In this document: one piece after another, positions 7,961-57,827 of the stretch
How positions within the stretch are numbered: the first letter of the stretch is position 1
Layout of the letters: each line of letters starts with the position of its first letter
IMG/VR virus record: IMGVR_UViG_3300036772_000425
Coordinates: 266,924 to 330,923 of that record
Length of the DNA: 64,000 bases
DNA from: a virus
Reading direction: 5' to 3' (one strand)
The notes under the pieces: model-generated
Databases searched by the model: none
What the model was told of the DNA's origin: nothing
What the model saw: only the letters and a program-made list of their open reading frames with translations
Position numbers and translations under genes: made by a program

Positions 7961-10900
7961 TCACTGCGTGGTCTGGTACGGCATCGGTCCCTGGGCCATC
8001 GCTCCGACAGGGTAGATGGGCCCGCGGTTGAAGCCCAGGTGATCGATACCAGGAGAGATATCGTGGACGGGTGAAAATGTCAACGTCACCTTGCACATCT
8101 TCGGAGCAGTCCTACCAAGACCGATCTCCCATGTCACCTTGTCGTGCCAGTCGAAGTTCATGGTCTCAATGAACCCAGCGAGGCCGCGCCCACCGGTGTC
8201 CTGGAAGGACTTGGCGATGGCGTTGTTCTGAGGGTTCAGGAAGTTTGCAACCTCGGATCCGAAGGCACTGTCCGGAGTGAGGCTTGCAAGGGCCGAGACG
8301 CCGCTCGCTGTGTCGGCCAACGTCTGCTCCGTGGGGTGCAGAGCCTGGATCGGGAACCGGTACGTTCCACCGACGAACTTCTTCAGAGGGAAATCGCTGC
8401 TGTTGAAGTTCTTGTCAACGTAGTCCTGGATCCCGCTCGTGTTCGCAACGTAGAGAGGATCGCTGTTCGGCTGCACCTGCCCGATGACCATGAACGGGTT
8501 GGTCGGATCGAGCTGCTGCACCTTGATCACGAACGCGCCCTTGTACTCAGAATCGCTCGGGGTGAACGACGGGCCGAAGGGCGGGCCGTCGCTGCTGCCT
8601 CCCAACGGGCTTGGGATCGAGATGCCGATCCCTCCGCCGGTGCTAGACGGATCCACGTAATCGTAGCTACGATTGTAGTCCGGGTAGAAGGTCTTGCTGC
8701 CGTCCGGGTTGGTCAGCAGATCCTGGATCGCTGCGGAATACGCGTCCACAGCGGCCTGATCCACCTTGTCCGCGTCCGTGAACTTCTGGCTGTTGATGGT
8801 GAAGTTGGGATTGCCCATCCCGAACAACCGTCCGAGGGCGAACAACGAGTAGTTGCTCCTGATCAGGTCACCCAACCTCAGTCTGATCAAGGGTGATGCA
8901 CCCTGCAACTGGCTGAACGGTTGGGTGAAGGCGTACGCTTGGCCCGAAGAATCTGACATCTGGACGCCCGATGTGTACTGAGGGTACAGCATGGTCACCA
9001 ACCGGTTGATCTTGATGTACATCTCATCGAAGTCGGCCGGAGAGGTGGCCACGATGTAGAATGATATCCCGATCCTGCGTTCGGTGCCCTTGTAGATCTT
9101 CACAGGTTCAACCCGTCCGATACCCTCGGTCTTATCGTACTGTGCGGTGTAGTCGTCTGTCAGGGTCGCAAGGAAGGCGTGGAAGCTCACCATCTCGTTC
9201 GTTCGAACGTCATGGAAGTAGAAGGGCACGTAGCTGGCCTCCAGCTGATCCTCGAACGCGTACGCAGCCTCTGAACTGATCCGGCCCATGTCAGTCGCAG
9301 CGACGACAGCCGTCTGCACCAGGGAGAAAGGATCACGACGGAGACCGACGTCGCTGCTGAACTGTCCCAGGTTCTTGACCGACAACGACAGAGCAAGGAT
9401 GCTGCCGGGAAGCAGGATGTTCGCCGGTGCACGGTTGTTGGACCATGCCAGCTTCAGCGTTCCCTTCAGACGGTTCTTGCTGACAGCATTGTTGATCGTG
9501 TCGTCCTTGCTGTCCATGCTGGACGTACGTGTCTTGTTGGAACTGGTGTCCACGTATGTCGGCGGCAAGGAAAGGACGGCATCGCCTAGGGTAGCAAAGA
9601 TGTTGCAGGCTGCGATGATCTTGGAGGTCCGGATGGTGTCGATCAGCGACAGGATCTGGTTGATGACGCTCATCGGATTCCCACCGATTTTCTTCAGCTG
9701 GTCCACGATCGTCAGGCTGCTTCGGGCAATGGAGCGAGCGACGACCACGTTGAACCCTGGGCTGTCCGTGCTGGACGTGAAGGCGCCCACCAGTTGGTTG
9801 AGGCCGATCCCACCGCCCGAGCTGTCAGGGATCTGGAAGAAGGCGTTCATGCCGGCCACGAGGGCACGAGAAAAAGGATAGTTGGTGGGTTGGATACCCA
9901 ACAGGGCGCCGAAATTGAGCGACGTGAGGGCACTGAGGGCCCCTCCGATACCGCCTGAATTCTGCTGGTTGGCTGCCTTGGTACCCGGAAAGTACTCGCC
10001 CAGGCTGTAGCGACCCTGCGGATCTCGGGCCGGTTGCTTCAGCTGGGGCGTGATCAGCCCGAGCAGGATGCTGAGCCCATCGAAGATCACCTCCACCCCT
10101 GCGACCAAGGCCGTCGACAGGGCGACCATGCCCAGCGCGTCCGTTCCATCGTACGGATCGTCTACGTTGTTGAGCTGTCCCCACGACAACCCGTTCGTGC
10201 TCAGCACGAAAGTGTCACCTGTCGGTTCGTCCGTGGTCAGCGTGGCGAGGACATCCTCGGCAGTCAACACCTGCGGTGAGATCCTTTCAACGCCGAGCTG
10301 AGCCACACCGGGGAGCAAGGCGCCTGCCTGCAGTGAACTTGCGTTCGGATCTGCACCCGGATCCGATGAACCGAGCTCGGTGCCCGCGCGCATGGTCAGC
10401 AGGGGACCGATCGCTGCCATGCGGCCGAGGGCGATGCTGGGGGCTTTCGGATCGTAGATGCCGAACTGCGTTTGGTTCGTCAGCCCCGGGTCGAAACCCA
10501 GGACGCCGTCGGCGTTAGCCTCAGCACCTGCAATGTCGCTGGTTCCCACGAACGATGCCGCTGCGGCCGAGAACCGGTTCGATGAGAGGACGGATGAGAC
10601 GTAGGGTGTGAGCACCCCTGCGGTGCTCTTGTGTCCCTTGATCGGCTTGGGGGTTACGCCGGGCCTGGGTGAATCACCAGCAATCCCGGGCAGCAGATCG
10701 TTACCATCGACCTTCCGGGAATCTGACTGGCCCTTGCCGAAGTCCTTCGAGATGGACGGATAGTCCTTCGAAAGGCTGGAGAACGACCCCTCATCGGGAG
10801 CAAAGACCCTGGAGTTCTTGGGATCCGGAATTCCGGGCGATTGTAGGGCCGGTCTCCCGGTCTTGGTCCGGATCGACACCTGATCGTACCCAGGGTCGAC

Positions 10901-19310: not shown

Positions 19311-19376
19311 GTCATGACTTTAACACTTGATACAGTACTGTACAGGATGTTTGTTATCGCAAGGTCAAGAAACGCC

Positions 19377-19416
19377 AAAAGGCCCTTTCGGGCCTTCTGA
19401 ATCAGCCTTTCGGCTT
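19377..19416 (-). terminator. Tandem hairpin terminators downstream of the tail tube gene
   Basis: GGCCC-TTTC-GGGCC hairpin followed by AGCC-TTTC-GGCT. On the minus RNA the first is followed by UUUUGGCGUUUCUUG. Confidence 0.5.
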
Positions 19417-19430
19417 GTCGAATCGCAATC

Positions 19431-19919
19431 TCAAAATTGCAGAACCGCGTTGTCAAAACGCAGCGTCAGGCTGATCTCGGCCGGCGTTCCGTCCTCGTAC
19501 GTCAGTTCACCGAAGTTCGCCTCGGTGATGAAGGCACCCTTGATGTCCCACAGTTCGACGACTGTACCGACGGGATCCAGCAGCTTGAGCTGCACGTCCC
19601 GCTTGTAGAAGTCTGCGTAGCCCGACCGGCCCGATACGGACTCAAAGTGAAGCCTGACCCACTCCATGATCTGCTGCGCGCCGGACGGCGCGATCGGATC
19701 GTGCAGGGTGACGGCCATGGTGTTGAACTTCGTCAGGCCGGCCAGGTAACGACGAGCGTTGATGAAGGGCATCTCCACCTCCTCGGTCGTCACGGTCGGT
19801 CGGGCCGTGGTCTTGATGATGTAGGCATCAATGCCCTCGATCATCAGAACCCAACGGTTCTTCCGCTTGGGTTCGAATTTGACTGGCAGCATTGACGTGA
19901 CATCGAGCGTTTCGGCCAT
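19431..19919 (-). CDS. Tail tube protein (T4 gp19-like)
   Basis: 162 aa. C-terminal ELWDIKGAFITEANFGELTYEDGTPAEISLTLRFDNAVLQF parallels gp19 EIKGLWPTNVGELQLDWDSNNEIQTFEVTLALDYWE. ATG start with GAGAGA-type RBS. Confidence 0.75.
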   Translation of the reverse strand: MAETLDVTSMLPVKFEPKRKNRWVLMIEGIDAYIIKTTARPTVTTEEVEMPFINARRYLAGLTKFNTMAVTLHDPIAPSGAQQIMEWVRLHFESVSGRSGYADFYKRDVQLKLLDPVGTVVELWDIKGAFITEANFGELTYEDGTPAEISLTLRFDNAVLQF

Positions 19920-20053: not shown

Positions 20054-21718
20054 ATGGCACCCGTCCCTGGGCAGGTTCTGCGCGTCGCCCAGTGCCCACT
20101 GTGCAATTTTTCATCAAAAAGGTTGACGACCTTCGGGACGCATGTGTCGGATGTCCACGGAAGTTCCGTCCAGGCAGAGTGGGATCGGTTGCACGGTGGA
20201 CCGCGGATCTGCGCCTGCGGTTGCGGCAGGGTGACCACATGGCTCGGTTGGCACGCAGGTTACTCGACCCTGCTGAGGGGCCACAACGCAAGCATCTACA
20301 CGGTGTACAGCACGGAAGAAGCGCAGCGGCTCGCTGCCACGCGTGGGATGAACTGGTCAGGCCAACCCGGGTGGTCCAAGGGCCTCACCAAGGAGACGGA
20401 TGACAGGGTCCGCATGCGTGCAGAGGCGACTGCCGTGGGCCGACAGACCGCCATCGACAGTGGTAGGATCTCCGTCTGGTCCAAGGGCCTCACCAAGGAG
20501 ACGGATCAGAGGGTCGCCGACGCAGCCGCGGCGAAGGGACGGGCACACGCGGACGGAACGTTGGTCGTCTGGTCCAACGGGCTCACCAAGGAGACCGACG
20601 TCAGGGTCGCTGCGATGGCTCGGGCCAACGCCATCACCCACCAACGGCGCGCCCTACGCGATCACCTGGACCGGATCAAGAGGTTGAGCCTCGATGAGAT
20701 CCGTGATCGGGTGGAGGGAGCAGGGAACATGGAGCTCATCGCAGCCGACGGGTACGTGAACGACCTCACCTCGGAGGTTCGGGTCAGGTGCAGGCTATGC
20801 ACGCAGGAATCCATCATCAACGCCAGGCAGGCGTTCGCGTCCAGGTGCCAGCACTGCGATCCTTTTGGGTCCGCGGCGCAGGCCGAGCTCGCCCGGACCG
20901 TCGAGGGTTGGGGGTTCCGGATCCGGCGCAACGATCGATCGACCATCCGGATGAACGGCAGCGTGGCGGAGCTGGACATCCTCATCCCGGAGCATGGGTT
21001 GGCCATCGAGTACAATGGGCTGTACTGGCACAGCAGCCTGAAAAAATCGTCAGCGTACCACCAGAACAAGTCGGACGCGTGCAAGGCGGTTGGGATCCAA
21101 CTGGTGCATGTCTTTGAGGATGAGTGGCGTGACCGGCGCACGATCGTTGAGGGCATGCTCATGCACCGCCTGGGAATGTCAACCCGGTTCGGAGCAAGGG
21201 TCTGCAGCATCGGCGCCCTGGAGCCTGGGGAACGCCGACGATTCTTCCGGCAGAACCACGTGGACGGTGACGTGCCCGCGGTGCATGCCTTGGGCCTCTA
21301 CCACCCAACCGCCGGGCTGGTGATGGCCATCAGCCTCCGGAGGCCGATCCTACGCAAGAAGCACGCCGGTTTCCTTGAGGTTGCCCGGCTGGCGACTGCG
21401 TCCGACACAGCGATCGTCGGCGGGCTGTCGAGGCTGTCGCGTGCAGCCCTGGCATGGGCACAGAATAATGGACATGCGGGCCTAATGACCTATGTTGACA
21501 CCCGGCACGGGAGCGACGGTGGGTCCTGGGTGGGCCATGGATGGGCACCCAAGGGGGAAACGCCGCCGCGATGGTGGTGGACTGACATGGAAACACGGTT
21601 CAACCGGTTCAAGTACCGGGCTGACCGTGCTCGGAACATGTCAGAGACGCAGGTCGCCGAGGAGGCGCACGTCGTGAAGATCCACGGATGCAAGAACCTG
21701 ATCCTTGAAATGATCTGA
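20054..21718 (+). mobile_element. Free-standing homing endonuclease gene: zinc finger + 3x NUMOD3-like repeats + DUF559/PD-(D/E)xK nuclease domain
   Basis: 554 aa on the plus strand inside a minus-strand block. N-terminal CPLCNF...HVSDVHG...CACGCG is the same module as the 18483..19310 HNH protein. Three repeats WSKGLTKETDDRV / WSKGLTKETDQRV / WSNGLTKETDVRV. C-terminal ELDILIPEHGLAIEYNGLYWHS...VHVFEDEW matches the DUF559 (Vsr-like) endonuclease motif. Confidence 0.8.
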
Positions 21719-21760: not shown

Positions 21761-22060
21761 TCAGCTCTTCCGGTACGTACCTGAACCGCCCGATGCGGGC
21801 TGCTGCGCCTGCATGTTCTTCGCAGCCTGCATGAGCCGGGTCACCCCGTTCAGCAAGGATTGAACCTGCTCTCCCGACTGGGAATCACCGCTCGCCTGGT
21901 ACATCTCACTGAGAGCCTGCTTCGCCGCGCTCAGGTGCTGGACGAACTTCTCCATCGATGCCTGGGCCCTGAAGCCCGGCGCGCCGGCCTCGTTCAGGGT
22001 TTCTTCCATGATGGTTCGGAGTTGGCTCCCGGTCAGCCTGACGACCCTGTTCTGTTTCAC
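21761..22060 (-). CDS. Small protein with CTS-like N-terminus (99 aa); putative internal head protein
   Basis: MKQNRVVRLTGSQLRTIMEETLNE. Paralogous to the adjacent 22057..22359 ORF. Confidence 0.5.
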   Translation of the reverse strand: MKQNRVVRLTGSQLRTIMEETLNEAGAPGFRAQASMEKFVQHLSAAKQALSEMYQASGDSQSGEQVQSLLNGVTRLMQAAKNMQAQQPASGGSGTYRKS

Positions 22061-22359
22061 CGCTTGCCTCCCGACATGATCCTCTGCATGGCTCCGTCGA
22101 CCTTGAAGGCCAGCGTCTCGAGTTCCTTGTGGATCGCGTTGAGCTCGTTCATGTGCTCGGGAGGTGCTTCATGGATCGCCTTCTGGAACATGTGGTCCGC
22201 CTCCCACAGCTTGGTCACCCCCTGCTTCAGGAAGCTACCGATCTGTGAGCCTGGGTACAGCTCGTTGAGGGTCTGCACCGTTTCTTTGAGCAGGTCAGGC
22301 CGGACGGATCGAGCCTCTTCGTTGATCAGTTTTCGGAGTTGCTGCCTGGAGATCTTCAC
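22057..22359 (-). CDS. Small protein with CTS-like N-terminus (100 aa); putative internal head protein
   Basis: MKISRQQLRKLINEEARSV. ATGA-type overlap with its neighbour. Confidence 0.5.
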   Translation of the reverse strand: MKISRQQLRKLINEEARSVRPDLLKETVQTLNELYPGSQIGSFLKQGVTKLWEADHMFQKAIHEAPPEHMNELNAIHKELETLAFKVDGAMQRIMSGGKR

Positions 22360-22393: not shown

Positions 22394-25393
22394 TCAGGGC
22401 TGCTGCTGGTTCAGGTTGTTCGTCACGACGAAGTCCAGTGACACGAACTCGATCGTCTTCGTGGGCATCACGAAGATCTTCCCGCGGATGGTGTTGTTCT
22501 CGATGTCCTGCTGCGTCGTCGTCGAGCTGTCGATCACGACCTTAAACCGATCGAGACCGGCGAGCGCCTGGATCCTCTGCAGACCGGGCGTGACTGCTGC
22601 CGTGAACTTCGCGAGGGTGACGTCCCTGTTGGGCTCGAAGAGGATGGTGTTGGAGATGTCGCGAACCTGACGCCTGATCTCGATCAGCAACCGGCGGACG
22701 TTGACCCTGTCGAGGGCCGATGCAGCCTGCTGCAGCGTCTTCTGTCCCCAGACCACGACGCCGCCGGTGGGGTTGGTACCACCCTGCGAATTGCCCGGGA
22801 AGGCGACGAGCGGGTTGATGTTGACGTCGTACAGGACGTCCATGTTGTTCTTGGACAGCTTGACCCGGGCCTCCAGGGTCGATTGCAGGGCTCCTCGGGT
22901 GAAACCGGCCGGAGCGAACCACGGATGACCCACCTTGTCATTCAAGGCCATGGCTCCCAGGACAACGACTGACGGTGGGACGACCACGTTAGTCTGCGTC
23001 GTCGGATCCGGGATCACAACGTCCGGGAAGTAAGCTGCTCCGAAGCTGCTGTCCAGGGCCCGGCTTGCGAAGTTCTGGGCCGTCAGGGTGACGCTCGGCA
23101 GCTGGTCATCGCTGGTCACCAGTTCACCGTTGTTGTCAAGCTGCTCTACGTCCATGATGTAGAGAGCATCGAACCTATCCTGCACCGCTGAGATGGCGGC
23201 ATCGGTGACCACTGGGTTCCGAGCGCCAGGAATGGCAAGGAGCTGCAGGTCGGTGTTCGTGGTCTCACCCATGATCTGCAGGGCCTTGGCGTAGGCCTGG
23301 ACCGTGGGTCCGTTGTTGGATCCACGGTTCGGATCGGACATGTCTCCCTCGACGGCTGCGTTGGTGAGCTGCGATTCATCCATGTCAAAGATGTTGATCC
23401 CATCCGAACCGCCCTGGACGAAGAAGCTCCACTTCAGGAAACGCCTGTTGGCCTGGATGAAGTCGTCTGGGATGACGGCCCGCGTTTTGTTGGCATCGTT
23501 TGCCACGATGCCGCCGGCGCGGACATAGGTTGCGTTGACCCACTGGTTGGAGTCAGCCACACCGGTAGAGCCGGTGATGACCTGGACGTTCATCAGGCTG
23601 AAGAAATCTCGGTTGAAGAGATCGTTGTCGATCGCTCCGTTCGCCACCGTGCTCGGGGTCCCGGTGTTGTCAGTGGACAGGAAGTCCTGCACATCAACCC
23701 GGTGGTTCGGGAAGTACTGCACGGTCGCGTTCATCGAAAGGTTGGGCAGAACGGACAGGTTCGGTGTGGCCAAGCTGGCCACGTGTTCGTACTGAACGCC
23801 CCAGTACAGGAGCGGGTTGACCTGCAACGTGGCTCCTGAACCCTGCGTCAGGTTCTGCCGGAACGGAACGGGCGGTTGCTTGACACGGGTCCATGCTGAT
23901 GAATCGATGACGGTGGCTGCCGTGGGCGCCACCAACGGAGCTGTGCCCGCCGTCATCAGGTGGTTCGCTCCACGCATGCCGACCGGCATGGCGCTCGGGT
24001 CTGCCTCGCCGGTGTCCACGCTGGAATCCATCTCGACCCGGATCAGGTTCGACTGGTTCAGGTAGTTGCCGTCCACCGCGATCTTCTGGGCTGTCAGGCC
24101 CCTGTCGAAGTCGAAGTACGAGTGTTGGTCGCCCACCACCTTGGCGATGTACCGATCATCGCTTGGGTTCAGGCTGAGCCCACGCCACTGTTCCAGGTAG
24201 ACGGGACTTGCGTCGTTGTCAGTCCAAGATCGAACGACCAGGTCGAATGACGGGTATGGGTCGTTGGAATCTGTCGAGATCGCAATGTTCTCGATGGCCA
24301 ACTTGTACAGCGTTGACACACCGGAACCGTCATCGAGGGCGTGCACCCTGAACAGGTTCTGAGCGCGGCCGCCGAAAGGTTGGCTGACAACCCAGGGTGA
24401 AAGAGCGTGGGTGAAACGATCCTGGAAATCCTCGAAATCCGGTGCCGTTGAGGTGCCGGAATCCCGAGCCTGAGACCCGGTGAGCAGGAATGCATCGTGC
24501 TCAAGGACCTGACCCACCATGGAACTGGTGAGGACTCCGATGCCCGTCACTACAGCGGTGGCTGGGTGGATGTCCCATGATGCGTAGACGAAGTGACCGG
24601 CCTGCTGAAGCTTGGTCTGATCGGTGTTGAGAACGTTTGCGAAGTAGTTCGGCGACGTCATGTCGAACGATGCCGTGATCACGTTCGGGTACAGCGGATC
24701 GGTGCCCTTGTGACCGTTGAGAAGCATGACAAAGTCCTGCTTGGCAACGCTCGATTGGAGAAGAACCGTTGAACCGACGGAAGCTCCGTTCCCGTTGCTG
24801 GCGACAGCGTTCGACCCGGGTCGAACGCTGGGAGCGACGGACGAGGACAGGGAGATGATGACGCCTGATGGAGCCATCACAACCCCCCGGAGGATGGGCT
24901 GTGCCGCAGAGCCTGACTGCAGGCCCGCCGAGCTGAAGACGGTTGACCCAGCTGACTCTGACATGAGGCAACCGAGGAAGTACGTCCGACCGAGCGGGCC
25001 GCCCAAGTTCGCGTACGGGTTGGAGCTCAGGATGCCTTCGTTGTCGGGATCCGGCTGCTTCTCACCCACCACGAAACCAGAGGTTCCGACGATGCCGGTC
25101 TGGGTGTTGCGCTGCTTCCCGTCTCCGGCACCCAGGATCCTGAGGTAGGTCAGGGCCTGAGCGTTCCGCAACCATTCACTGACCGCCAGCGGCCCGAACT
25201 TCTGGCCGTCGGACGGCCCGAACTTGGCGTTGAAGTCAGACTGCAATCCGACCGTGATCGGAACGTAAGCCGGACCCTTCACCGCGGTGCCGATGACACC
25301 GGCTGGGACGCCCGTCGGTTGCTGAGCAACCGGGCCCGAGAGATCGATCTCCTGAGCTGTGACCCCCGCTGCACCGAACTTCAACTGTGCCAT
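22394..25393 (-). CDS. Tail sheath protein, copy 1 (gp18-like, 999 aa)
   Basis: C-terminus NRVNVRRLLIEIRRQ...IEFVSLDFVVTN parallels gp18 DRINVRRLFNMLK...INYITLNFVATA. N-terminus TGVPAGVIGTAVKGPAYVPITVG. Preceded by GATAGTTAGGAACGAGGCAGGACAGGC-ATG. Confidence 0.85.
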   Translation of the reverse strand: MAQLKFGAAGVTAQEIDLSGPVAQQPTGVPAGVIGTAVKGPAYVPITVGLQSDFNAKFGPSDGQKFGPLAVSEWLRNAQALTYLRILGAGDGKQRNTQTGIVGTSGFVVGEKQPDPDNEGILSSNPYANLGGPLGRTYFLGCLMSESAGSTVFSSAGLQSGSAAQPILRGVVMAPSGVIISLSSSVAPSVRPGSNAVASNGNGASVGSTVLLQSSVAKQDFVMLLNGHKGTDPLYPNVITASFDMTSPNYFANVLNTDQTKLQQAGHFVYASWDIHPATAVVTGIGVLTSSMVGQVLEHDAFLLTGSQARDSGTSTAPDFEDFQDRFTHALSPWVVSQPFGGRAQNLFRVHALDDGSGVSTLYKLAIENIAISTDSNDPYPSFDLVVRSWTDNDASPVYLEQWRGLSLNPSDDRYIAKVVGDQHSYFDFDRGLTAQKIAVDGNYLNQSNLIRVEMDSSVDTGEADPSAMPVGMRGANHLMTAGTAPLVAPTAATVIDSSAWTRVKQPPVPFRQNLTQGSGATLQVNPLLYWGVQYEHVASLATPNLSVLPNLSMNATVQYFPNHRVDVQDFLSTDNTGTPSTVANGAIDNDLFNRDFFSLMNVQVITGSTGVADSNQWVNATYVRAGGIVANDANKTRAVIPDDFIQANRRFLKWSFFVQGGSDGINIFDMDESQLTNAAVEGDMSDPNRGSNNGPTVQAYAKALQIMGETTNTDLQLLAIPGARNPVVTDAAISAVQDRFDALYIMDVEQLDNNGELVTSDDQLPSVTLTAQNFASRALDSSFGAAYFPDVVIPDPTTQTNVVVPPSVVVLGAMALNDKVGHPWFAPAGFTRGALQSTLEARVKLSKNNMDVLYDVNINPLVAFPGNSQGGTNPTGGVVVWGQKTLQQAASALDRVNVRRLLIEIRRQVRDISNTILFEPNRDVTLAKFTAAVTPGLQRIQALAGLDRFKVVIDSSTTTQQDIENNTIRGKIFVMPTKTIEFVSLDFVVTNNLNQQQP

Positions 25394-25434
25394 GCCTGTC
25401 CTGCCTCGTTCCTAACTATCGTTCTCTGCCTCGA

Positions 25435-25647
25435 TCATGAACCCTTGACGCAGTCGAAGCACTCCCAAGCCCCATCTTCTAGCTCAACCCAACCCCTGCG
25501 CTTGGCAGAGGCAAGCGATTCTTCCAGCATTTCTAGACGAACGTAGTACTGCGCCCCGCACATGCACACCATGCGGGGCACAAGCACCGCGACATCAGAA
25601 GCGATGACTAACCCTTTGGGTTGCTCGTTTCCCATGATCTTCACCAT
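25435..25647 (-). CDS. Small zinc-ribbon protein (70 aa) between the two sheath genes
   Basis: CMCG...CFDC Cys pairs, in the 266-bp gap between the sheath paralogues. Confidence 0.4.
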   Translation of the reverse strand: MVKIMGNEQPKGLVIASDVAVLVPRMVCMCGAQYYVRLEMLEESLASAKRRGWVELEDGAWECFDCVKGS

Positions 25648-25658
25648 GTTCTCATGAA

Positions 25659-28600
25659 TCAGACGAAGGCGATGCCGCTGTTGGTGATGATGAAGTCAAC
25701 CGCGATGAATTCAATCACACGGGTGGGCACCACCACGATCCGGCCGTTCAGCTTGTTCAGGTCGATGTCGGCCTGCGTGTTGTTGGTCTCATTCATGATG
25801 ACCTGGAAGGATTCGATCCCGGCCTGTGCCTGGATCAGGCCCAACTGCAGGGCTGATTGCGAGACGAACTTGCCCCAAACCTCGGGCGTGTTCTGCTCGA
25901 ACTCCAGGCCCAAAGCGATGTTGATGACGATCCTCTTGACCTCCAGCAGCAACCGGCGGACGTTGACCCGATCGAGCGCGGAGCTCTTGATCTGCAGCGT
26001 CTTCTGTCCCCAGACCACGAATCCCTGCCTGGGGAAGGTGGCGATCGGATTGATCCGGCTGTCGTAGAGACGATCCCTGTCCGAGGAGTTCAAGCGGACC
26101 TCAACGTTGCTGACGAAGTCGAGAGCAGCCCGGTTGAACCCAGCCGGCGCGAACCACGGGTACCCCACCCGATCATTGAACCCAAGGGCTCCGAGCGCAG
26201 CGATGGACGCTGGCACCTTGATGCGGCGGCGGTTGGTGGAATCTTCGATGAAGACGTCCGGGAAGTACGTACCGACGTAGTTGTTGTCGATCGCTCGGGT
26301 GTCCAGGCCGACCGCTGTCTGGTTGACGTCGGGCTTCAGGGTCGCATCGTCGAAGAGGCGAACCTGGTTCTCATCGAATTTCTCAAGGTCCATCACGTAG
26401 TAGGCGAGCCCGTAGGCCCTGACCTTCTGTCCCGTGTAATCGCTGATGAAAGGTTCCCTGATACCCGGAAGGAGGAGAACGTTGTGGTTGACCGCCATCG
26501 GATCCGTCATGATGTTGACAGCCGCTACGTACGAGGCGACCGTGGAGTTCTGCTGCCCTGCACCCGACTGGTTCGCTGCGAATGCTGCTGGGATGAACCC
26601 GGGTGCCGCCTCGCCGACGAAGGAGCTCGCCTTGTCGTTCATCCGACGTGCATCGGGATCCAGCGTGTTGACGCCGTCCCAACCGCCCGCAAGGAAGGTG
26701 GTGAATTTTGCGTATGGGCTGAAACGGTTGAAGACAGAGGCGGATGCCTTACCGAGCAGGGTTGCAAACGAAATGCGAGGACCGATGACAGGATCCTGGA
26801 TCGTGTACTGGGTGGTGTCCACCTTTCCGTTGCGGATGTAGGCTGCCTCCCTCATGTGCGTGTCGACAGACGCCGTCAGGTCGGTCAAGGAACTGTTGCC
26901 GAGCGCAACCCGGGCCAACGTGAACTTGTTGTTGTTCAGCACGTCGGCACCCGACCCGGTGACCACCGTGTCCAGCTGCTGGATCCCCTGCAGCTGGGTC
27001 AACGATGAGAGCAGGGAGTTCGGGAACGTCTCCAGGTTCGGATCGAGCGGGATATCGTTCCTTTCGAACTTGACACCCCAGTAGTACAGCGGAACAGAAA
27101 GCTCCGTGATGCCCGGTTCGCCGAACCACGATGCCGCGGTCGGACGTTGGCCCTTGGTCACCTTGGAACGCATCGGCACGGGGGGCACGATTGCTCCGCT
27201 CAGTGCCTGAGCAGACCCGGTCACAACACCGGAGATCCTCACGAGCCCACCGGTCTGCGCGGAGTCCGTCAAGGAATCGTTCGTCTTCAGGATCACCGCT
27301 CCACGGAAACCGAACGGAAGCGCCTGCGGCGGCGTCAGGCCACGATCGACCTGGGAATTCATGACGATCCTGACAAGTGCCGAGTTGTTCTGGTACTTCC
27401 CCTGCGTCACGATCCGTCGCTCATCCGGATCGGTTGAATCAAAGTTGAAGTACACCTTCCGATCTCCGATCACCTTCGCAACGTAGTTCTGTGCGTTGGG
27501 ATCGAGCGAGCAGTTGTTGAACTGCTCCAGCACCAGCGGGCTGGTGTCCGTGTCAGACCAGGAACGAACCTGGACTGCGAAGGTCCCGTACTTGTTGGCA
27601 TCGTCCAGGGATGCCTTCAGGCTGACGATGGAGATCTTGTACAGGTTGTTTGCGTACGATCCATCGTCGAGGGCCTCAAACCTGAAGAGATCGTACTCGG
27701 TGGCACCGAATGGTTGGCTGATGAAGTTCGTGGTCGAGGGAGCCTTGAACCGGGTATCGAACGCTCCGAACGCCTTGCGGTACTGCAGGGTGGCATCGCC
27801 AGAGTTCAGGCTCACGTTGTTGGTACCCGAGACCACGGCGACGACTGAGTTCGCCACTGTCGCAATCTCATCATCGACAGCGAAGTCTGAGTACAGCAGG
27901 TGCTTCGTGGTCGCAAAGCGATCCGGATCAGAGTTCAGGACCTTGGCGAAGTAGTCAGTTGAGCTCGGATCCAACGAAGCCGTCAGGATGTGAACCCCTG
28001 ATTGACCGTCGTTGTTGTAGTAGCTGTCGCCCAACGATGTTGAGATGATCAGCTTGAATTTCCCGTTTGAATCAGTCGCACCTGCGTCCAACATGGTGTT
28101 GACGGCGCCCGCTGACATGTCACGGTTGTAGTCAGTGACCATCAGCTTCGACCCAGAGGCCATCAGAACAACACCCCTGATCAGGTTGACGATGGACGAT
28201 GCGAACGAATCGTTGTCCGTGAAGTCAGCCTGGCCGAACGCTTCGTTCGCCTGCTTGGTGTGCCGAGCCACGATGTACTGAACGCTGTGATCGTACCGAC
28301 CGAGCCTGTCCTGGGACGTACCGTCCAGGTGGTACCCTGCGTTGAGGACCCGACCCTGCACGCTGGCACGGGTGATGTCTGTTGCGCTGGCGTTGTTACC
28401 GGCTCCCAGGATCCTCATGAAGGTCAGGGCCGACCGGTTGTTGAGCCAGTTGTTGGCTGCGTAGGGCCCGAACCTTTTCGGATCAAGGTTGCCGAAGATG
28501 CTGACGAACTGATCCCAGTTCCCCACCGTGACCGGCACGAATGCTGGTCCTCGGTTGGAGGTGCCGATGACACCGGCCGGAACACCAACAGGGCCTTGCG

Positions 28601-28667
28601 GTGCTGGAGCTGACTGGTCAATCTCCCGATCGAAAAAGTTGGGAGACCTGAAAGACTGTGCGGGCAT
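25659..28667 (-). CDS. Tail sheath protein, copy 2 (gp18-like, 1002 aa)
   Basis: Paralogue of copy 1: N-terminus VGVPAGVIGTSNRGPAFVPVTVG, C-terminus DRVNVRRLLLEVKRI...IEFIAVDFIITN. ATG start with GAGGAG RBS. Confidence 0.85.
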   Translation of the reverse strand: MPAQSFRSPNFFDREIDQSAPAPQGPVGVPAGVIGTSNRGPAFVPVTVGNWDQFVSIFGNLDPKRFGPYAANNWLNNRSALTFMRILGAGNNASATDITRASVQGRVLNAGYHLDGTSQDRLGRYDHSVQYIVARHTKQANEAFGQADFTDNDSFASSIVNLIRGVVLMASGSKLMVTDYNRDMSAGAVNTMLDAGATDSNGKFKLIISTSLGDSYYNNDGQSGVHILTASLDPSSTDYFAKVLNSDPDRFATTKHLLYSDFAVDDEIATVANSVVAVVSGTNNVSLNSGDATLQYRKAFGAFDTRFKAPSTTNFISQPFGATEYDLFRFEALDDGSYANNLYKISIVSLKASLDDANKYGTFAVQVRSWSDTDTSPLVLEQFNNCSLDPNAQNYVAKVIGDRKVYFNFDSTDPDERRIVTQGKYQNNSALVRIVMNSQVDRGLTPPQALPFGFRGAVILKTNDSLTDSAQTGGLVRISGVVTGSAQALSGAIVPPVPMRSKVTKGQRPTAASWFGEPGITELSVPLYYWGVKFERNDIPLDPNLETFPNSLLSSLTQLQGIQQLDTVVTGSGADVLNNNKFTLARVALGNSSLTDLTASVDTHMREAAYIRNGKVDTTQYTIQDPVIGPRISFATLLGKASASVFNRFSPYAKFTTFLAGGWDGVNTLDPDARRMNDKASSFVGEAAPGFIPAAFAANQSGAGQQNSTVASYVAAVNIMTDPMAVNHNVLLLPGIREPFISDYTGQKVRAYGLAYYVMDLEKFDENQVRLFDDATLKPDVNQTAVGLDTRAIDNNYVGTYFPDVFIEDSTNRRRIKVPASIAALGALGFNDRVGYPWFAPAGFNRAALDFVSNVEVRLNSSDRDRLYDSRINPIATFPRQGFVVWGQKTLQIKSSALDRVNVRRLLLEVKRIVINIALGLEFEQNTPEVWGKFVSQSALQLGLIQAQAGIESFQVIMNETNNTQADIDLNKLNGRIVVVPTRVIEFIAVDFIITNSGIAFV

Positions 28668-28751
28668 TACCGTGCTCCTCTAGCGGATCTGTGGGGATGG
28701 ATCGCTGTGGGATAAGTATTTCGGGCACGGCCCGAATGACCGTCGATGGGG

Positions 28752-30053
28752 TTAGTCCTCCACCAAGACGATCGTCAACCCGAGCAGATCCTGATCTGGG
28801 ACCAGCACGGTCTCGCCCGTTGAACCGTTGATGTTCCTGACCCTAACTAGGCGTACGACCTTTTTTCCGCGTCCGTCGATCCCAGTGACCTTCTTGTACC
28901 TGGCCGGATGGGTTCCTCGCGGGTACGACCTCAAGGCCGGATCTTCTGGGTTGATCTCCTGGGAGTCTGGGTACAGGCGCGTCCTGTTGATCATCCTCTG
29001 GTCAGATCGGGTGTTCGGGCCATCATCGCCCGAGGTGAGCGGCAACGTCGGATCGTCCGCACCCAGAAAAGGATCATCGATGGAATCGTTGCCGATCGAC
29101 TCGCTGCCTCCGGTTGACACCTGGAAGCTGATCGTGGGTGAGGAAATGTAGCGCCTGACGGGTACCGGTGCGCCCGGAGTACCGGATGCGAGGATGTAGC
29201 CGGGCACGTTGATCACCAGCTTGTACCGGATGAGCCGTTCCTCCTGCGAGTAGTCATCGGTGTTCGTGTCAGCAGTGTACTGGTTCCCATCCACGCTGGC
29301 CATGAACCAGTAACCTTGGGGGGTGTCCAATCGCCAGCTGTTTCCCTGCGGCAGGAACGAGGAGATCATAGCCTCCAGCATCTGGTTCATGTGCCCAGTG
29401 TACTGGGACCACAGGGTGACATCGTATTTTGCGGTGAAGAACTGGGGAGCTGGGATGACGATCGTCTCGTAAACGTTCTTCTGACGGTTCGGCAGCAGCA
29501 GACCGCCCTGCTGCACGGTCGGATCGTCCTCCAGATCTCCGATCTCACCCAGGGTGCTCAACTGCCCGGGTTCGACCTCTGAGGGGGTCACCGCGAGGTT
29601 GGCCTGATTTCTCAGCATCAACCGGTTGATGAGTCCTTGGTACGCCCTGTCCGATTTATCGAGCCGGCGGTTGATGACAATCTCGCCGGTTTGCTGGTTG
29701 ATGCCCCTACCGGTGATGTCCAACGCAGGATCCTGGGTCAGGGTGGTCCGGACGGCGGTGATCAACGGAAGGATCAGCGTGTTGTTCCGATCCTTGAGAG
29801 CCTTGAGACGCTTGTTCAGCGCCCATTTCTCCCCCGCAAAGAACACCACCGGGACCCGTTTCTGGTCGACCCCGTTACCTGACACGATGAACCTGATCTC
29901 CTCGTTGAACAGCTTGAACAGCGCCCGATCAACATCCTCAATCCCGACCGCGGGTACGACCACGTCCGGAGCCGGTTTCCCCTGGTAGCCCGTGGGCAGC
30001 CCAGAGAACAGGTCGAAGCGACGCTGTGGATCGGCGGTGTACCTGGTCGTCAT
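28752..30053 (-). CDS. Putative neck / tail-completion protein (433 aa)
   Basis: Structural-module ORF upstream of the sheath (the position of T4 gp13-15). No catalytic motifs. Overlaps the next gene's stop. Confidence 0.45.
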   Translation of the reverse strand: MTTRYTADPQRRFDLFSGLPTGYQGKPAPDVVVPAVGIEDVDRALFKLFNEEIRFIVSGNGVDQKRVPVVFFAGEKWALNKRLKALKDRNNTLILPLITAVRTTLTQDPALDITGRGINQQTGEIVINRRLDKSDRAYQGLINRLMLRNQANLAVTPSEVEPGQLSTLGEIGDLEDDPTVQQGGLLLPNRQKNVYETIVIPAPQFFTAKYDVTLWSQYTGHMNQMLEAMISSFLPQGNSWRLDTPQGYWFMASVDGNQYTADTNTDDYSQEERLIRYKLVINVPGYILASGTPGAPVPVRRYISSPTISFQVSTGGSESIGNDSIDDPFLGADDPTLPLTSGDDGPNTRSDQRMINRTRLYPDSQEINPEDPALRSYPRGTHPARYKKVTGIDGRGKKVVRLVRVRNINGSTGETVLVPDQDLLGLTIVLVED

Positions 30054-32989: not shown

Positions 32990-33004
32990 CGTCGTAAGTA
33001 TCCC

Positions 33005-36304: not shown

Positions 36305-36316
36305 CTGTCGTTGTAA

Positions 36317-36823
36317 CTATTGCTGGGGCCTGGTTCTCCGGCTCGGCTTCTTCGGTTCCTGCTTGTACTCGTCGATCGGTTTGCCCGGGTTCATGCCCGG
36401 TGGTCGATCACGTTGCTCACGTTCAGGGTCGTTCTCCCATGCCGCGTGCGCATCGGCCTTCGCCTTCTCCTCATCGTAGAGGCGCTTGACGCTGCCAGTT
36501 GCCTGCTTGAGGGCGGCAGCAGCGCCCGCCGCCTGCAGACGCTTGGCCTCCGTATCGTTGAAGAGCTGTTTCATCAGCTCAATGCACCGGTTGACGTAGA
36601 TCCGTCCGTACTCAGCTTCCTTGAGCGGGATCTTGGCTGCTTGGACCTCTGTCAGCATCCGGTGCAGGTATGTCTCCAGAGTGTTCCCTGCCATCCCGAA
36701 GGCCAACTTCATGGCATTCAGGTTCTGGGCCTCGCGCTCGTAGGATTCCCCCAGCTCCTCGATCTTCGTTCCGGTCGAGAAGACTGCTGCGGCCCTGCCG
36801 TGCTGGTACTCGCTCTCGCTCAT
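36317..36823 (-). CDS. Coiled-coil protein (168 aa), possible fibre assembly/chaperone
   Basis: Start chosen at MSESEYQHG to avoid a 130-nt overlap with the upstream gene. Lys/Glu-rich helical C-terminus. Confidence 0.4.
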   Translation of the reverse strand: MSESEYQHGRAAAVFSTGTKIEELGESYEREAQNLNAMKLAFGMAGNTLETYLHRMLTEVQAAKIPLKEAEYGRIYVNRCIELMKQLFNDTEAKRLQAAGAAAALKQATGSVKRLYDEEKAKADAHAAWENDPEREQRDRPPGMNPGKPIDEYKQEPKKPSRRTRPQQ

Positions 36824-44601: not shown

Positions 44602-45183
44602 CTAACTATCCTGCGTACCCGCCCTCAAGAGCCACTTCTGTTGGATCCGTTCCTTGCCAGAATGGCTGGGCCACAGACGTCCGACCAACGTCATCCGGAT
44701 GGGCGCCAACGACCAGACCTCGCCCGTCACCTGAGGGTCGTCGCTGATGATGCCATTGACCACCCGAGCGTGCTCTTCGTCCGTCGGCTCAACGTTATTG
44801 TCCTCAGCGTAACGAGCAAACGACCAATCAGGACCCCATGGATTGCGTGACGAACCCAGGTCGATCCCGGTGGTCGGGGTCATGATCCGAGAACCCGATC
44901 GGGCTGCGTAGACGAACATCTCGGCCTGCCCGAAGCTCGACGGTTCGTCCGAACCGAACTTGCCCATGACGGCCTTGGCAACGCTGGTCGCGAGACAGAC
45001 ACGCGGTGTCGTGAAGTCCTCTGCGTCGGTGTGGGCGGTCCACGTCGGTATCCGTGGCTCCAGGACGAGCTGGTTGCCCCTGTCATTCGGGGTGATGTGG
45101 AAGTAGCGCCAACCACCAACCGGATCGGTGAGAGTTTCAACGATCAGCTGCCTGAGCCGGTGCACCGTCATCTTCAGCATCAT
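44602..45183 (-). CDS. Protein with CTS-like N-terminus (193 aa); putative internal head protein
   Basis: MMLKMTVHRLRQLIVETLTD. Its TAG stop lies 4 nt upstream of the next ATG. Confidence 0.45.
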   Translation of the reverse strand: MMLKMTVHRLRQLIVETLTDPVGGWRYFHITPNDRGNQLVLEPRIPTWTAHTDAEDFTTPRVCLATSVAKAVMGKFGSDEPSSFGQAEMFVYAARSGSRIMTPTTGIDLGSSRNPWGPDWSFARYAEDNNVEPTDEEHARVVNGIISDDPQVTGEVWSLAPIRMTLVGRLWPSHSGKERIQQKWLLRAGTQDS

Positions 45184-45185
45184 GG

Positions 45186-45707
45186 CTAAGTATGACAGAC
45201 CAGCTCGATGAGTTCATGCAATGGACGCAACCTCTCGCTCGGAACGAGACGGTAGCCTCCCATGTCGATGAAGGCAGGATCGTTCAAATCGCTCAAGATC
45301 CAGCCCAAGCAGCTGAACGTTATGTCCCGAGGCGCATCGAATTCTTCAAGGAATGCAGGCAATTCAGGTCGAAGGCCGATCAGAATGACCCCCGGATGCA
45401 AGGTTGTCACAGTGATACCTGGGTTGTTCCGGGTCGATGGTTTCGGCACCTTCACATCAAGCATGTAGTCACCCAACTTGATGTCGTACTCCCACTCTCT
45501 GCCCAATTGGGCACCGGTGATCGAACGTTTGACATGTCGTAGAGCATCAACATGAGCAACCTGTCCGAAGAAGCGCCCGAGCGCGAGCTCGCTTCGGTTG
45601 GGCACGTAGAACTGAGCGTAATTCTTGCCTCGTTGCTTCATTGCCAAGGCGGCAAGGTGACTCACTTCATGATCTTCCGACATGGGACTGACGAGCCTGC
45701 ACAGCAT
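45186..45707 (-). CDS. Hypothetical protein with HExxH motif (putative zinc metallopeptidase, 173 aa)
   Basis: MSEDHEVSHLAALAMKQ contains HEVSH (HEXXH). First gene after the terminator that follows the capsid gene. Confidence 0.35.
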   Translation of the reverse strand: MLCRLVSPMSEDHEVSHLAALAMKQRGKNYAQFYVPNRSELALGRFFGQVAHVDALRHVKRSITGAQLGREWEYDIKLGDYMLDVKVPKPSTRNNPGITVTTLHPGVILIGLRPELPAFLEEFDAPRDITFSCLGWILSDLNDPAFIDMGGYRLVPSERLRPLHELIELVCHT

Positions 45708-49732: not shown

Positions 49733-49791
49733 GCTTTCTCCGTGAACCCTTGACCTAAGTATCGAGGAATCCTCCCAAGTGTGGGAGGTGC

Positions 49792-57793: not shown

Positions 57794-57827
57794 GTTGACG
57801 TGTCTCCACGTCTAACTATGGCAGACA

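Follow-up and report, generated by a model that had tools for sequence, protein, structure and literature searches.

Contractile tail sheaths are usually regarded as homopolymers of one protein. A two-component sheath was reportedly described by Kurochkina et al. in 2018 (Virology 515:46) for PaBG, a jumbo phage of Pseudomonas. According to PMC7412058, this phage of the 'Lupandier' group acquired its two-component sheath by gene duplication, both proteins were found in virions by mass spectrometry, and the two are predicted to share similar folds; PaBG is the only described phage exception that we found, and it was called 'unique'. Sheaths built from several paralogues are standard in the antifeeding prophage (AFP) and Photorhabdus virulence cassette (PVC) injection systems (PMC12546770). 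The N- and C-terminal strands form an inter-subunit handshake in solved sheaths, and in PVC such handshakes join alternating layers of Pvc2 and Pvc3, with Pvc4 acting as the initiator and an extra outer knob of Pvc3 thought to serve as a domain for the docking of fibers (PMC12546770). Here we analyzed two tandem tail sheath genes, called shA and shB, in a stretch of 64,000 nucleotides (nt) of viral DNA (positions 266,924 to 330,923 of the IMG/VR record IMGVR_UViG_3300036772_000425), in the following called the window. The pair goes back to an old, lineage-specific duplication and was kept throughout a clade of uncultured jumbo phages, and we consider it fairly probable, also by analogy to the systems above, that its products form one ordered heteromeric sheath with two different outer surfaces.

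The shA–shB gene pair

A preliminary description of the window, made from its letters, had reported two long tail sheath paralogues separated by a small open reading frame (ORF), and we recovered all three ORFs with exactly the same positions and lengths on the minus strand. The two sheath genes are located as follows:

25659–28667, minus strand: shA, ORF, upstream tail sheath paralogue of 1002 amino acids (aa)
22394–25393, minus strand: shB, ORF, downstream tail sheath paralogue of 999 aa

Over their full length, ShA and ShB are 33% identical (BLASTP, E=1e-156), which is far above chance. The alignment is unbroken from end to end; hence the whole domain set is common to both and not the core alone. 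The pairwise comparison proposed in the preliminary description therefore identifies them as full-length homologs, both of which keep the conserved core. In windows of 50 residues, identity is highest toward the ends (40–59%, residues 1–100 and 800–1000) and lowest in the center (15–27%, residues 101–300 and 551–650). The divergence thus lies mainly in the central, presumably outer, domains, as had been proposed, although the center, which had been described as a large divergent insertion region, can still be aligned throughout.

The N-terminal motif reads GVPAGVIGTSNRGPAFVPVTVG in ShA and GVPAGVIGTAVKGPAYVPITVG in ShB, and the C-terminal motif reads DRVNVRRLL...IEFIAVDFIITN in ShA, with ...IEFVSLDFVVTN as its counterpart in ShB. 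Both motifs had been noticed before and are present in both proteins, with the trivial deviation that ShB has an L where a V had been given. Across the orthologs, dozens of invariant residues are common to A and B. Another 51 positions are fixed within A and within B yet differ between them. These discriminating positions show an enrichment toward the C terminus, with an odds ratio of 3.2 (p=0.0015) for the final 100 residues and of 4.6 (p=0.0004) for the final 50.

That both genes encode sheath paralogues with a conserved assembly core was corroborated by family profiles, by a profile comparison with the PDB and by predicted structures. PHROG 23 ('tail sheath') was matched by ShA with an E-value of 1e-46 and by ShB with 3.5e-52, and three further sheath PHROGs were matched by both. 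With the window proteins alone, Pfam matches stayed below the gathering score (23.5 versus 31.4 bits, and 26.3 versus 26.9 bits), the second of these being the Phage_sheath_1C match of ShB, slightly under its cut-off. PF17482 or PF04984 is precomputed for many of the orthologs, PF17482 for most of those of ShB. A profile built from the A and B orthologs matched T4 gp18 in the PDB, with the C-terminal ~190 residues corresponding to gp18 residues 458–650 (E 1e-37), and further matched sheath proteins of other phages, of the Streptomyces contractile injection system, of AFP (Afp2/3) and of PVC (Pvc2/3/4).

The AlphaFold2 models, good for ShA and acceptable for ShB, reached a mean predicted local distance difference test score (pLDDT) of 83.3 and a predicted template-modeling score (pTM) of 0.81 for ShA, and 74.5 and 0.76 for ShB, with the secondary-structure elements in the same order in both. 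Foldseek searches of the PDB placed T4 gp18 and the sheath protein of Klebsiella phage KP1 on top for ShA (E 1e-15); for ShB, T4 gp18 was best (E 4e-16) and the KP1 sheath again among the top matches, with a probability of 1.00 for both proteins. The template-modeling (TM) scores were low (0.27–0.36 on the query), an effect of the extra domains and of superposing multi-domain proteins. Matches in BFVD were sheaths of 800–1500 aa from uncultured phages and cyanophages. The length of both proteins, correctly stated before to be about 50% above that of T4 gp18 (659 aa), is therefore large at ~1000 aa but not unprecedented, and by itself it is nothing exceptional. Orthologs of ShA at 56–82% identity were found in more than 100 metagenomic proteins. 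Based on sequence, predicted fold and location in a tail module, we assign ShA and ShB to the gp18-type contractile tail sheath proteins.

Conservation and origin of the pair

In IMG/VR we identified at least 80 related loci with shA orthologs at 56–77% identity. Loci reaching at least 300 nt past shA were considered informative for shB (77 loci), and those reaching at least 500 nt past shB for a possible third copy (47 loci). An shB ortholog followed shA in 77 of the 77 informative loci, the A and B ORFs were intact in all relatives, and the spacer between them measured 42–64 nt in 68 of 79 cases. GTDB contigs contributed one more relative at 63% identity (L090) and three deeper ones that are 44–47% identical to ShA (L091–L093); these four contigs (JBAYGC010000019, DQKQ01000203, NHDW01000006 and PBIO01000013; up to 305,838 bp) all have the order A, B, tail tube gene. 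The arrangement of a gp15-like gene, A, B and the tube gene is conserved in the relatives, in which the tube protein is 70–97% identical. The GC content of the locus ranges from 0.35 to 0.66; the clade is thus broad, and its hosts are presumably diverse. The metagenome-assembled genomes (MAGs) containing contigs of the L090–L093 type are labeled Patescibacteria, Flavobacteriales, Methylococcaceae and Halobacteriovorax; these labels are inconsistent and were not used to infer a host, and the phage contigs were probably mis-binned. Some MAG contigs of the deeper relatives bear isolate names from marine surveys, e.g., TMED69.

Within each genome, A and B are ~31–35% identical throughout the clade, and hence there is no sign of gene conversion. 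We calculated dN/dS in pairwise comparisons (NG86, Nei–Gojobori method) for pairs with a dS of 0.1–1.5 and obtained medians of 0.125 (A), 0.078 (B) and 0.197 (third copy). Purifying selection maintains both shA and shB.

To place the duplication, we calculated neighbor-joining (NJ) trees with 200 bootstraps from 413–425 core columns. The A proteins, including copy 1 of L090–L093, formed one clade (99–100% bootstrap), and the B proteins formed another together with the third copies and copy 2 of L091–L093 (99–100%). A and B were joined in a common clade (96–97%), outside of which were the sheath proteins of Microcystis phage Mel-JY01, of the uncultured phage LR756508, of T4-like Aeh1 (gp18), of SP-15 and of PaBG. 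The duplication is therefore lineage-specific, older than the radiation of the lineage and independent of the duplication in PaBG. An earlier NJ tree from columns with less than 20% gaps, rooted on PaBG gp093, left the deep nodes unresolved (27% for A, B and the third copy together), because insert domains absent from the outgroups dominated the columns and gp093 forms a very long branch; it was replaced by the core-only alignments.

In 17 of the 47 informative loci (L018, L020, L025, L027, L028, L034–L039, L041, L048 and L061–L064; e.g., L020:16302-19463), shB and the tube gene are separated by a third tandem copy of 1021–1053 aa. It is 41–45% identical to ShB and branches within or beside the ShB orthologs, such that B alone is not consistently monophyletic; the third copy is derived from shB. 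In the three deeper relatives, the shB ortholog is enlarged to 1398 aa (L091:5281-9477), 1507 aa (L092:11239-15762) and 1183 aa (L093:11203-14754) by an Ala/Thr/Ser/Gly-rich insertion after about residue 130, with insertions in the outer region of up to ~480 aa, while the shA ortholog stays at 1050–1076 aa. Re-duplicated in some sub-lineages and enlarged in others, shB is the more plastic copy.

Tandem sheath genes were also found outside of the A/B clade. One locus has copies of 583 and 577 aa followed by the tube gene (L100:7560-11080) and another one has copies of 974 and 1159 aa (L167:174-6692); each pair is monophyletic with 100% bootstrap and consequently represents a further independent duplication. 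In LR756508, two copies of 824 aa (L084:4777-7251 and 8266-10740) occupy the equivalent syntenic position, ~1 kb apart. The second one groups with the sheath of Mel-JY01 (96–99%), the placement of the first, which forms a long branch, is uncertain, and neither falls inside the A clade or the clade of B and the third copy; copy 1 may nevertheless share the origin of the A/B duplication. The repeated tandem duplication of sheath genes (L100, L167 and LR756508) suggests a recurrent selective advantage.

Genomic context and expression signals

Besides the sheath proteins, the window encodes a gp23-like major head protein, a gp20-like portal, a large terminase and a gp19-like tail tube, and proteins identical to ShA and ShB are encoded on a JGI contig of 340,433 bp; the source is an uncultured T4-superfamily jumbo phage. 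A megablast search with the 7-kb region against 50,697 phage records gave no match. The closest published proteins are those of Mel-JY01 and of the 484-kb phage LR756508, whose sheath and capsid proteins are ~32–45% identical. The gene order on the minus strand is an adaptor-like gene (397 aa), a 225-aa gene, a gp15-like gene (433 aa), shA, a 70-aa ORF and shB; there follow two small ORFs, a homing-endonuclease-like gene on the plus strand, a single tube gene and a strong terminator hairpin. The elements around the sheath genes are:

28752–30053, minus strand: gp15-like protein, 433 aa, putative tail/sheath terminator directly upstream of shA (weak Pfam match to T4-gp15_tss, E 0.009, below the cut-off)
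25435–25647, minus strand: ORFan of 70 aa in the shA–shB spacer, with four Cys (CxC...CxxC)
21761–22359, minus strand: two small adjacent ORFs of 100 and 99 aa between shB and the endonuclease gene
20054–21718, plus strand: homing-endonuclease-like gene, 554 aa, between the sheath genes and the tube gene (PHROG 3339, E 4e-57)
19431–19919, minus strand: single gp19-like tail tube gene, 162 aa (PHROG 4542 tail tube, E 1.6e-28)
19375–19400, minus strand: intrinsic-terminator-like hairpin closing the sheath-tube module, 11-bp stem with 6 GC pairs and a T-run

The gp15-like gene keeps its position in the relatives, in Mel-JY01 and in LR756508. Neither a second tube gene nor a further sheath gene was found within the window.

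Both sheath genes are preceded by a plausible Shine-Dalgarno sequence and by a copy of the heptamer ATA(C/G)TTA. This heptamer occurs in eight exact copies in the window, compared to 0.81 expected, all of them on the coding strand and 10–52 nt upstream of gene starts, including those of other structural genes:

28713–28719, minus strand: ATACTTA, similar to a late promoter; the start of shA lies 52 nt downstream
25413–25419, minus strand: ATAGTTA, similar to a late promoter; the start of shB lies 26 nt downstream
57813–57819, 49756–49762, 45187–45193, 44603–44609, 36314–36320 and 32995–33001, minus strand: the other ATA(C/G)TTA sites

Among the distinct upstream regions of the relatives, the heptamer was present in 37 of 62 for A, 52 of 57 for B and 12 of 12 for the third copy. 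The late promoter of T4 is TATAAATA. By its resemblance to this sequence, ATA(C/G)TTA is a candidate late promoter of the phage clade. On the coding strand of the window, the stretch from the gp15-like to the tube gene is free of terminators, and the shA–shB spacer shows no sigma-70-like promoter. Four relatives (L005, L009, L011 and L082) have strong GC-rich hairpins (−25 to −52 kcal/mol) directly after shA, which suggests that the transcriptional coupling of A and B varies among relatives. Some of these hairpins carry a T-run, and most (not that of L011) precede an ATA(C/G)TTA motif; in the window, shA is not followed by a hairpin of this kind.

The 70-aa ORF between the sheath genes had been called a zinc ribbon in the preliminary description. 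Its length and position were as described and it contains four cysteines, but it matched no Pfam or PHROG family, only the protein itself was found among 5.8 billion proteins, and no homolog was present in 82 IMG/VR loci; the family label is therefore not kept, and a conserved zinc-ribbon partner within the sheath system was ruled out. The GC content at its third codon positions is 0.65, compared to 0.78–0.84 in the neighboring genes. Most likely, the ORF is an insertion confined to this lineage and has no part in the sheath system; the insertion may be recent, or the ORF may not be a gene. In other relatives, too, mobile DNA has landed in the A–B spacer: the spacer of one locus contains an ORF for a GIY-YIG-like endonuclease of 226 aa (L007:3296-4114) and another locus a 47-aa remnant (L004:4888-5229).

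On the other side of shB, the two small ORFs of 99 and 100 aa both begin with MK...QLR. They matched no Pfam or PHROG family, and the idea that they are paralogues of each other was dropped after BLASTP at 1e-3 gave no cross-match. Homologs occur sporadically downstream of shB, of the 99-aa protein in L003 and L014 and of the 100-aa protein in L090. Copies of the endonuclease-like gene are found at varying positions and in varying orientations in the relatives, and the module as a whole is colonized by homing endonucleases.

Sheath assembly and comparison with known systems

In the explanation that we favor, shA and shB are anciently duplicated genes of gp18-type sheath proteins that would both be expressed late in infection. 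Their products would co-polymerise around the single tail-tube protein into one heteromeric contractile sheath, in an ordered arrangement of either alternating rings or an A–B pair as the repeat unit, as for Pvc2/Pvc3 in the Photorhabdus injection systems. The inner assembly core, consisting of the N-terminal arm and the C-terminal domain, was kept in both proteins while the outer domains diverged, which would yield two different exposed tail surfaces. We favor this ordered heteromeric sheath because the two genes are constrained and always occur together beside one tube gene, because they share the promoter-like motif and because PaBG and PVC provide precedents. The discriminating positions enriched near the C terminus, which in solved sheaths contributes strands to the inter-subunit handshake (PMC12546770), would fit co-adapted heterotypic contacts and are an indirect hint at an ordered use of the paralogues. 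Conservation, shared genomic context and analogy likewise suggest that both proteins are produced and enter the virion, and how they might be arranged there.

Several observations weigh against this explanation. The discriminating residues near the C terminus are equally compatible with two separate homopolymers. The model of ShB is less confident in the C-terminal domain (pLDDT 36–63). Given the hairpins after shA in four relatives, A and B may be transcribed late as two separate units and expressed in unequal amounts. Moreover, we found no cultured relative for this phage clade.

Unequal amounts would suit a division of labor, in which one paralogue provides the bulk of the sheath and the other a short segment, either an initiator close to the baseplate or rings close to the neck, similar to Pvc4/Afp4. 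Pvc4, one of the three PVC sheath paralogues, forms such a dedicated initiator layer, the hairpins after shA would permit different dosages in some relatives, and the third copy in 17 of the 47 loci shows that specialized additional members are tolerated. On the other hand, ShA and ShB are of equal length, contain the same domain set, are equally conserved and constrained, and neither is reduced or adapted in the way Pvc4 is; moreover, a good Shine-Dalgarno sequence and the common promoter-like motif precede both genes, and we hold this arrangement to be rather unlikely. The C-terminal residues specific to each paralogue could instead enforce homotypic assembly, with each tail built from one paralogue and two types of virions, e.g., for different hosts or conditions. 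The strong divergence of the outer domains (15–27% identity) would fit such alternative sheaths, as would the high plasticity of the outer regions of ShB with the insertions of up to ~480 aa in L091–L093. However, both genes belong to the same late module with the same motif, no switch element was seen there, and none of the relatives lost either copy, although occasional losses would be expected if one copy sufficed. We know of no phage that uses alternative sheaths, and consider this scenario improbable.

One copy might also have been co-opted for a role outside of the sheath, e.g., in a collar, in an outer layer of decoration or in a tubular structure inside the cell, leaving the other as the sole true sheath protein. 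Proteins with the sheath fold can self-polymerise into polysheaths, as stated in PMC6357053, and of the two proteins JGI annotated ShB alone as a sheath, under the name 'phage tail sheath protein FI'. Yet the N-terminal arm motif and the gp18-like, tube-proximal C-terminal domain are kept in both proteins along with the dozens of shared invariant residues, and both genes lie where a sheath gene is canonically located, flanked by the gp15-like and tube genes, which makes co-option improbable for either copy. The remaining option, a decaying or non-functional duplicate, corresponds to the pseudo-paralogue that the preliminary description had named as a counter-explanation. Nothing was found in its favor, and it is effectively refuted by the intact ORFs in all relatives, by dN/dS values well below 1 for both genes (0.08–0.13), by the retention of the pair in each of the 77 informative relatives, and by a duplication that predates a radiation reaching down to 44–47% identity. 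We therefore retain the ordered heteromeric sheath as the working explanation.

Myoviruses normally have a single sheath gene, as the preliminary description had noted, but several sheath paralogues are known from PaBG (PMC7412058) and from AFP/PVC (PMC12546770), and for this reason the finding is not a new principle. What is new is that a large and widespread uncultured clade of T4-superfamily jumbo phages, with contigs of up to ~340 kb or more, has universally carried the pair since before its radiation, that the genes lie in tandem, that they expanded to three copies and that there is evidence for repeated independent duplications. It is possible, though doubtful at present, that heteromeric sheaths are a recurrent convergent solution in myoviruses with large genomes, which would have arisen in at least four independent lineages (the A/B clade with or without the third copy, L100, L167 and PaBG; LR756508 may be a fifth). 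In the phages studied here, two to three paralogues might then follow each other in fixed alternation through co-adapted C-terminal handshake strands and form a periodic outer scaffold, on which ShB and the third copy would be the evolvable surface for docking fibers or for binding polymers of the host surface. If fixed alternation were true, phages would for the first time have a counterpart to the layering of Pvc2 and Pvc3, and this would include the first three-component phage sheath. Ordered co-assembly would make these phages natural models for how handshake specificity programs a hetero-polymeric contractile machine and for the diversification of sheath surfaces, both questions of relevance for the engineering of PVC-like delivery devices. 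The interest of the system is moderate, and would rise with ordered alternation demonstrated.

Compared with the described systems, the locus resembles that of T4: gp18 is the best match in sequence and structure, and the module consists of a gp15-like protein, sheath, gp19-like tube, gp23-like capsid and gp20-like portal. In contrast to T4 with its one sheath gene for a protein of 659 aa, the clade has two or three genes for proteins of ~1000 aa with additional central domains. Judged by the similarity of sheath and capsid, no published genomes are nearer than those of Mel-JY01 and LR756508, which share the syntenic module of an adaptor-like gene, a gp15-like gene, the sheath gene or genes and the tube gene. 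Mel-JY01, with a single sheath of 812 aa directly next to the tube gene, is the single-copy relative that the preliminary description had expected to exist.

With Pvc2/Pvc3/Pvc4 and Afp2/Afp3/Afp4, the locus has in common that several paralogues of the gp18 fold are encoded next to each other, and the window proteins match those chains by profile and fold. However, AFP and PVC are capsid-less, tailocin-like particles with sheath proteins of 350–470 aa, whereas the shA–shB locus comes with a major capsid protein, a portal and a large terminase and thus does not belong to the extracellular contractile injection systems; its sheath proteins are closest to T4 gp18, and no reduced copy of the initiator type is evident.

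In functional terms, PaBG is the closest case known, and the likeness is that of a jumbo myovirus with two paralogous, intact sheath genes from a duplication. The two sheath genes of PaBG are ~100 kb apart (at 65 kb and 166 kb in the record) and encode proteins of 541 and 547 aa, whereas shA and shB are adjacent and about twice as long at ~1000 aa each, and a third copy is possible in their clade. PaBG gp273 groups with Yersinia phage fHe-Yen9-02 (82% bootstrap), outside of the A+B clade, in line with an independent origin. The resemblance to PaBG is thus convergent: the shA–shB system would work like PaBG but is not a member of the PaBG lineage.

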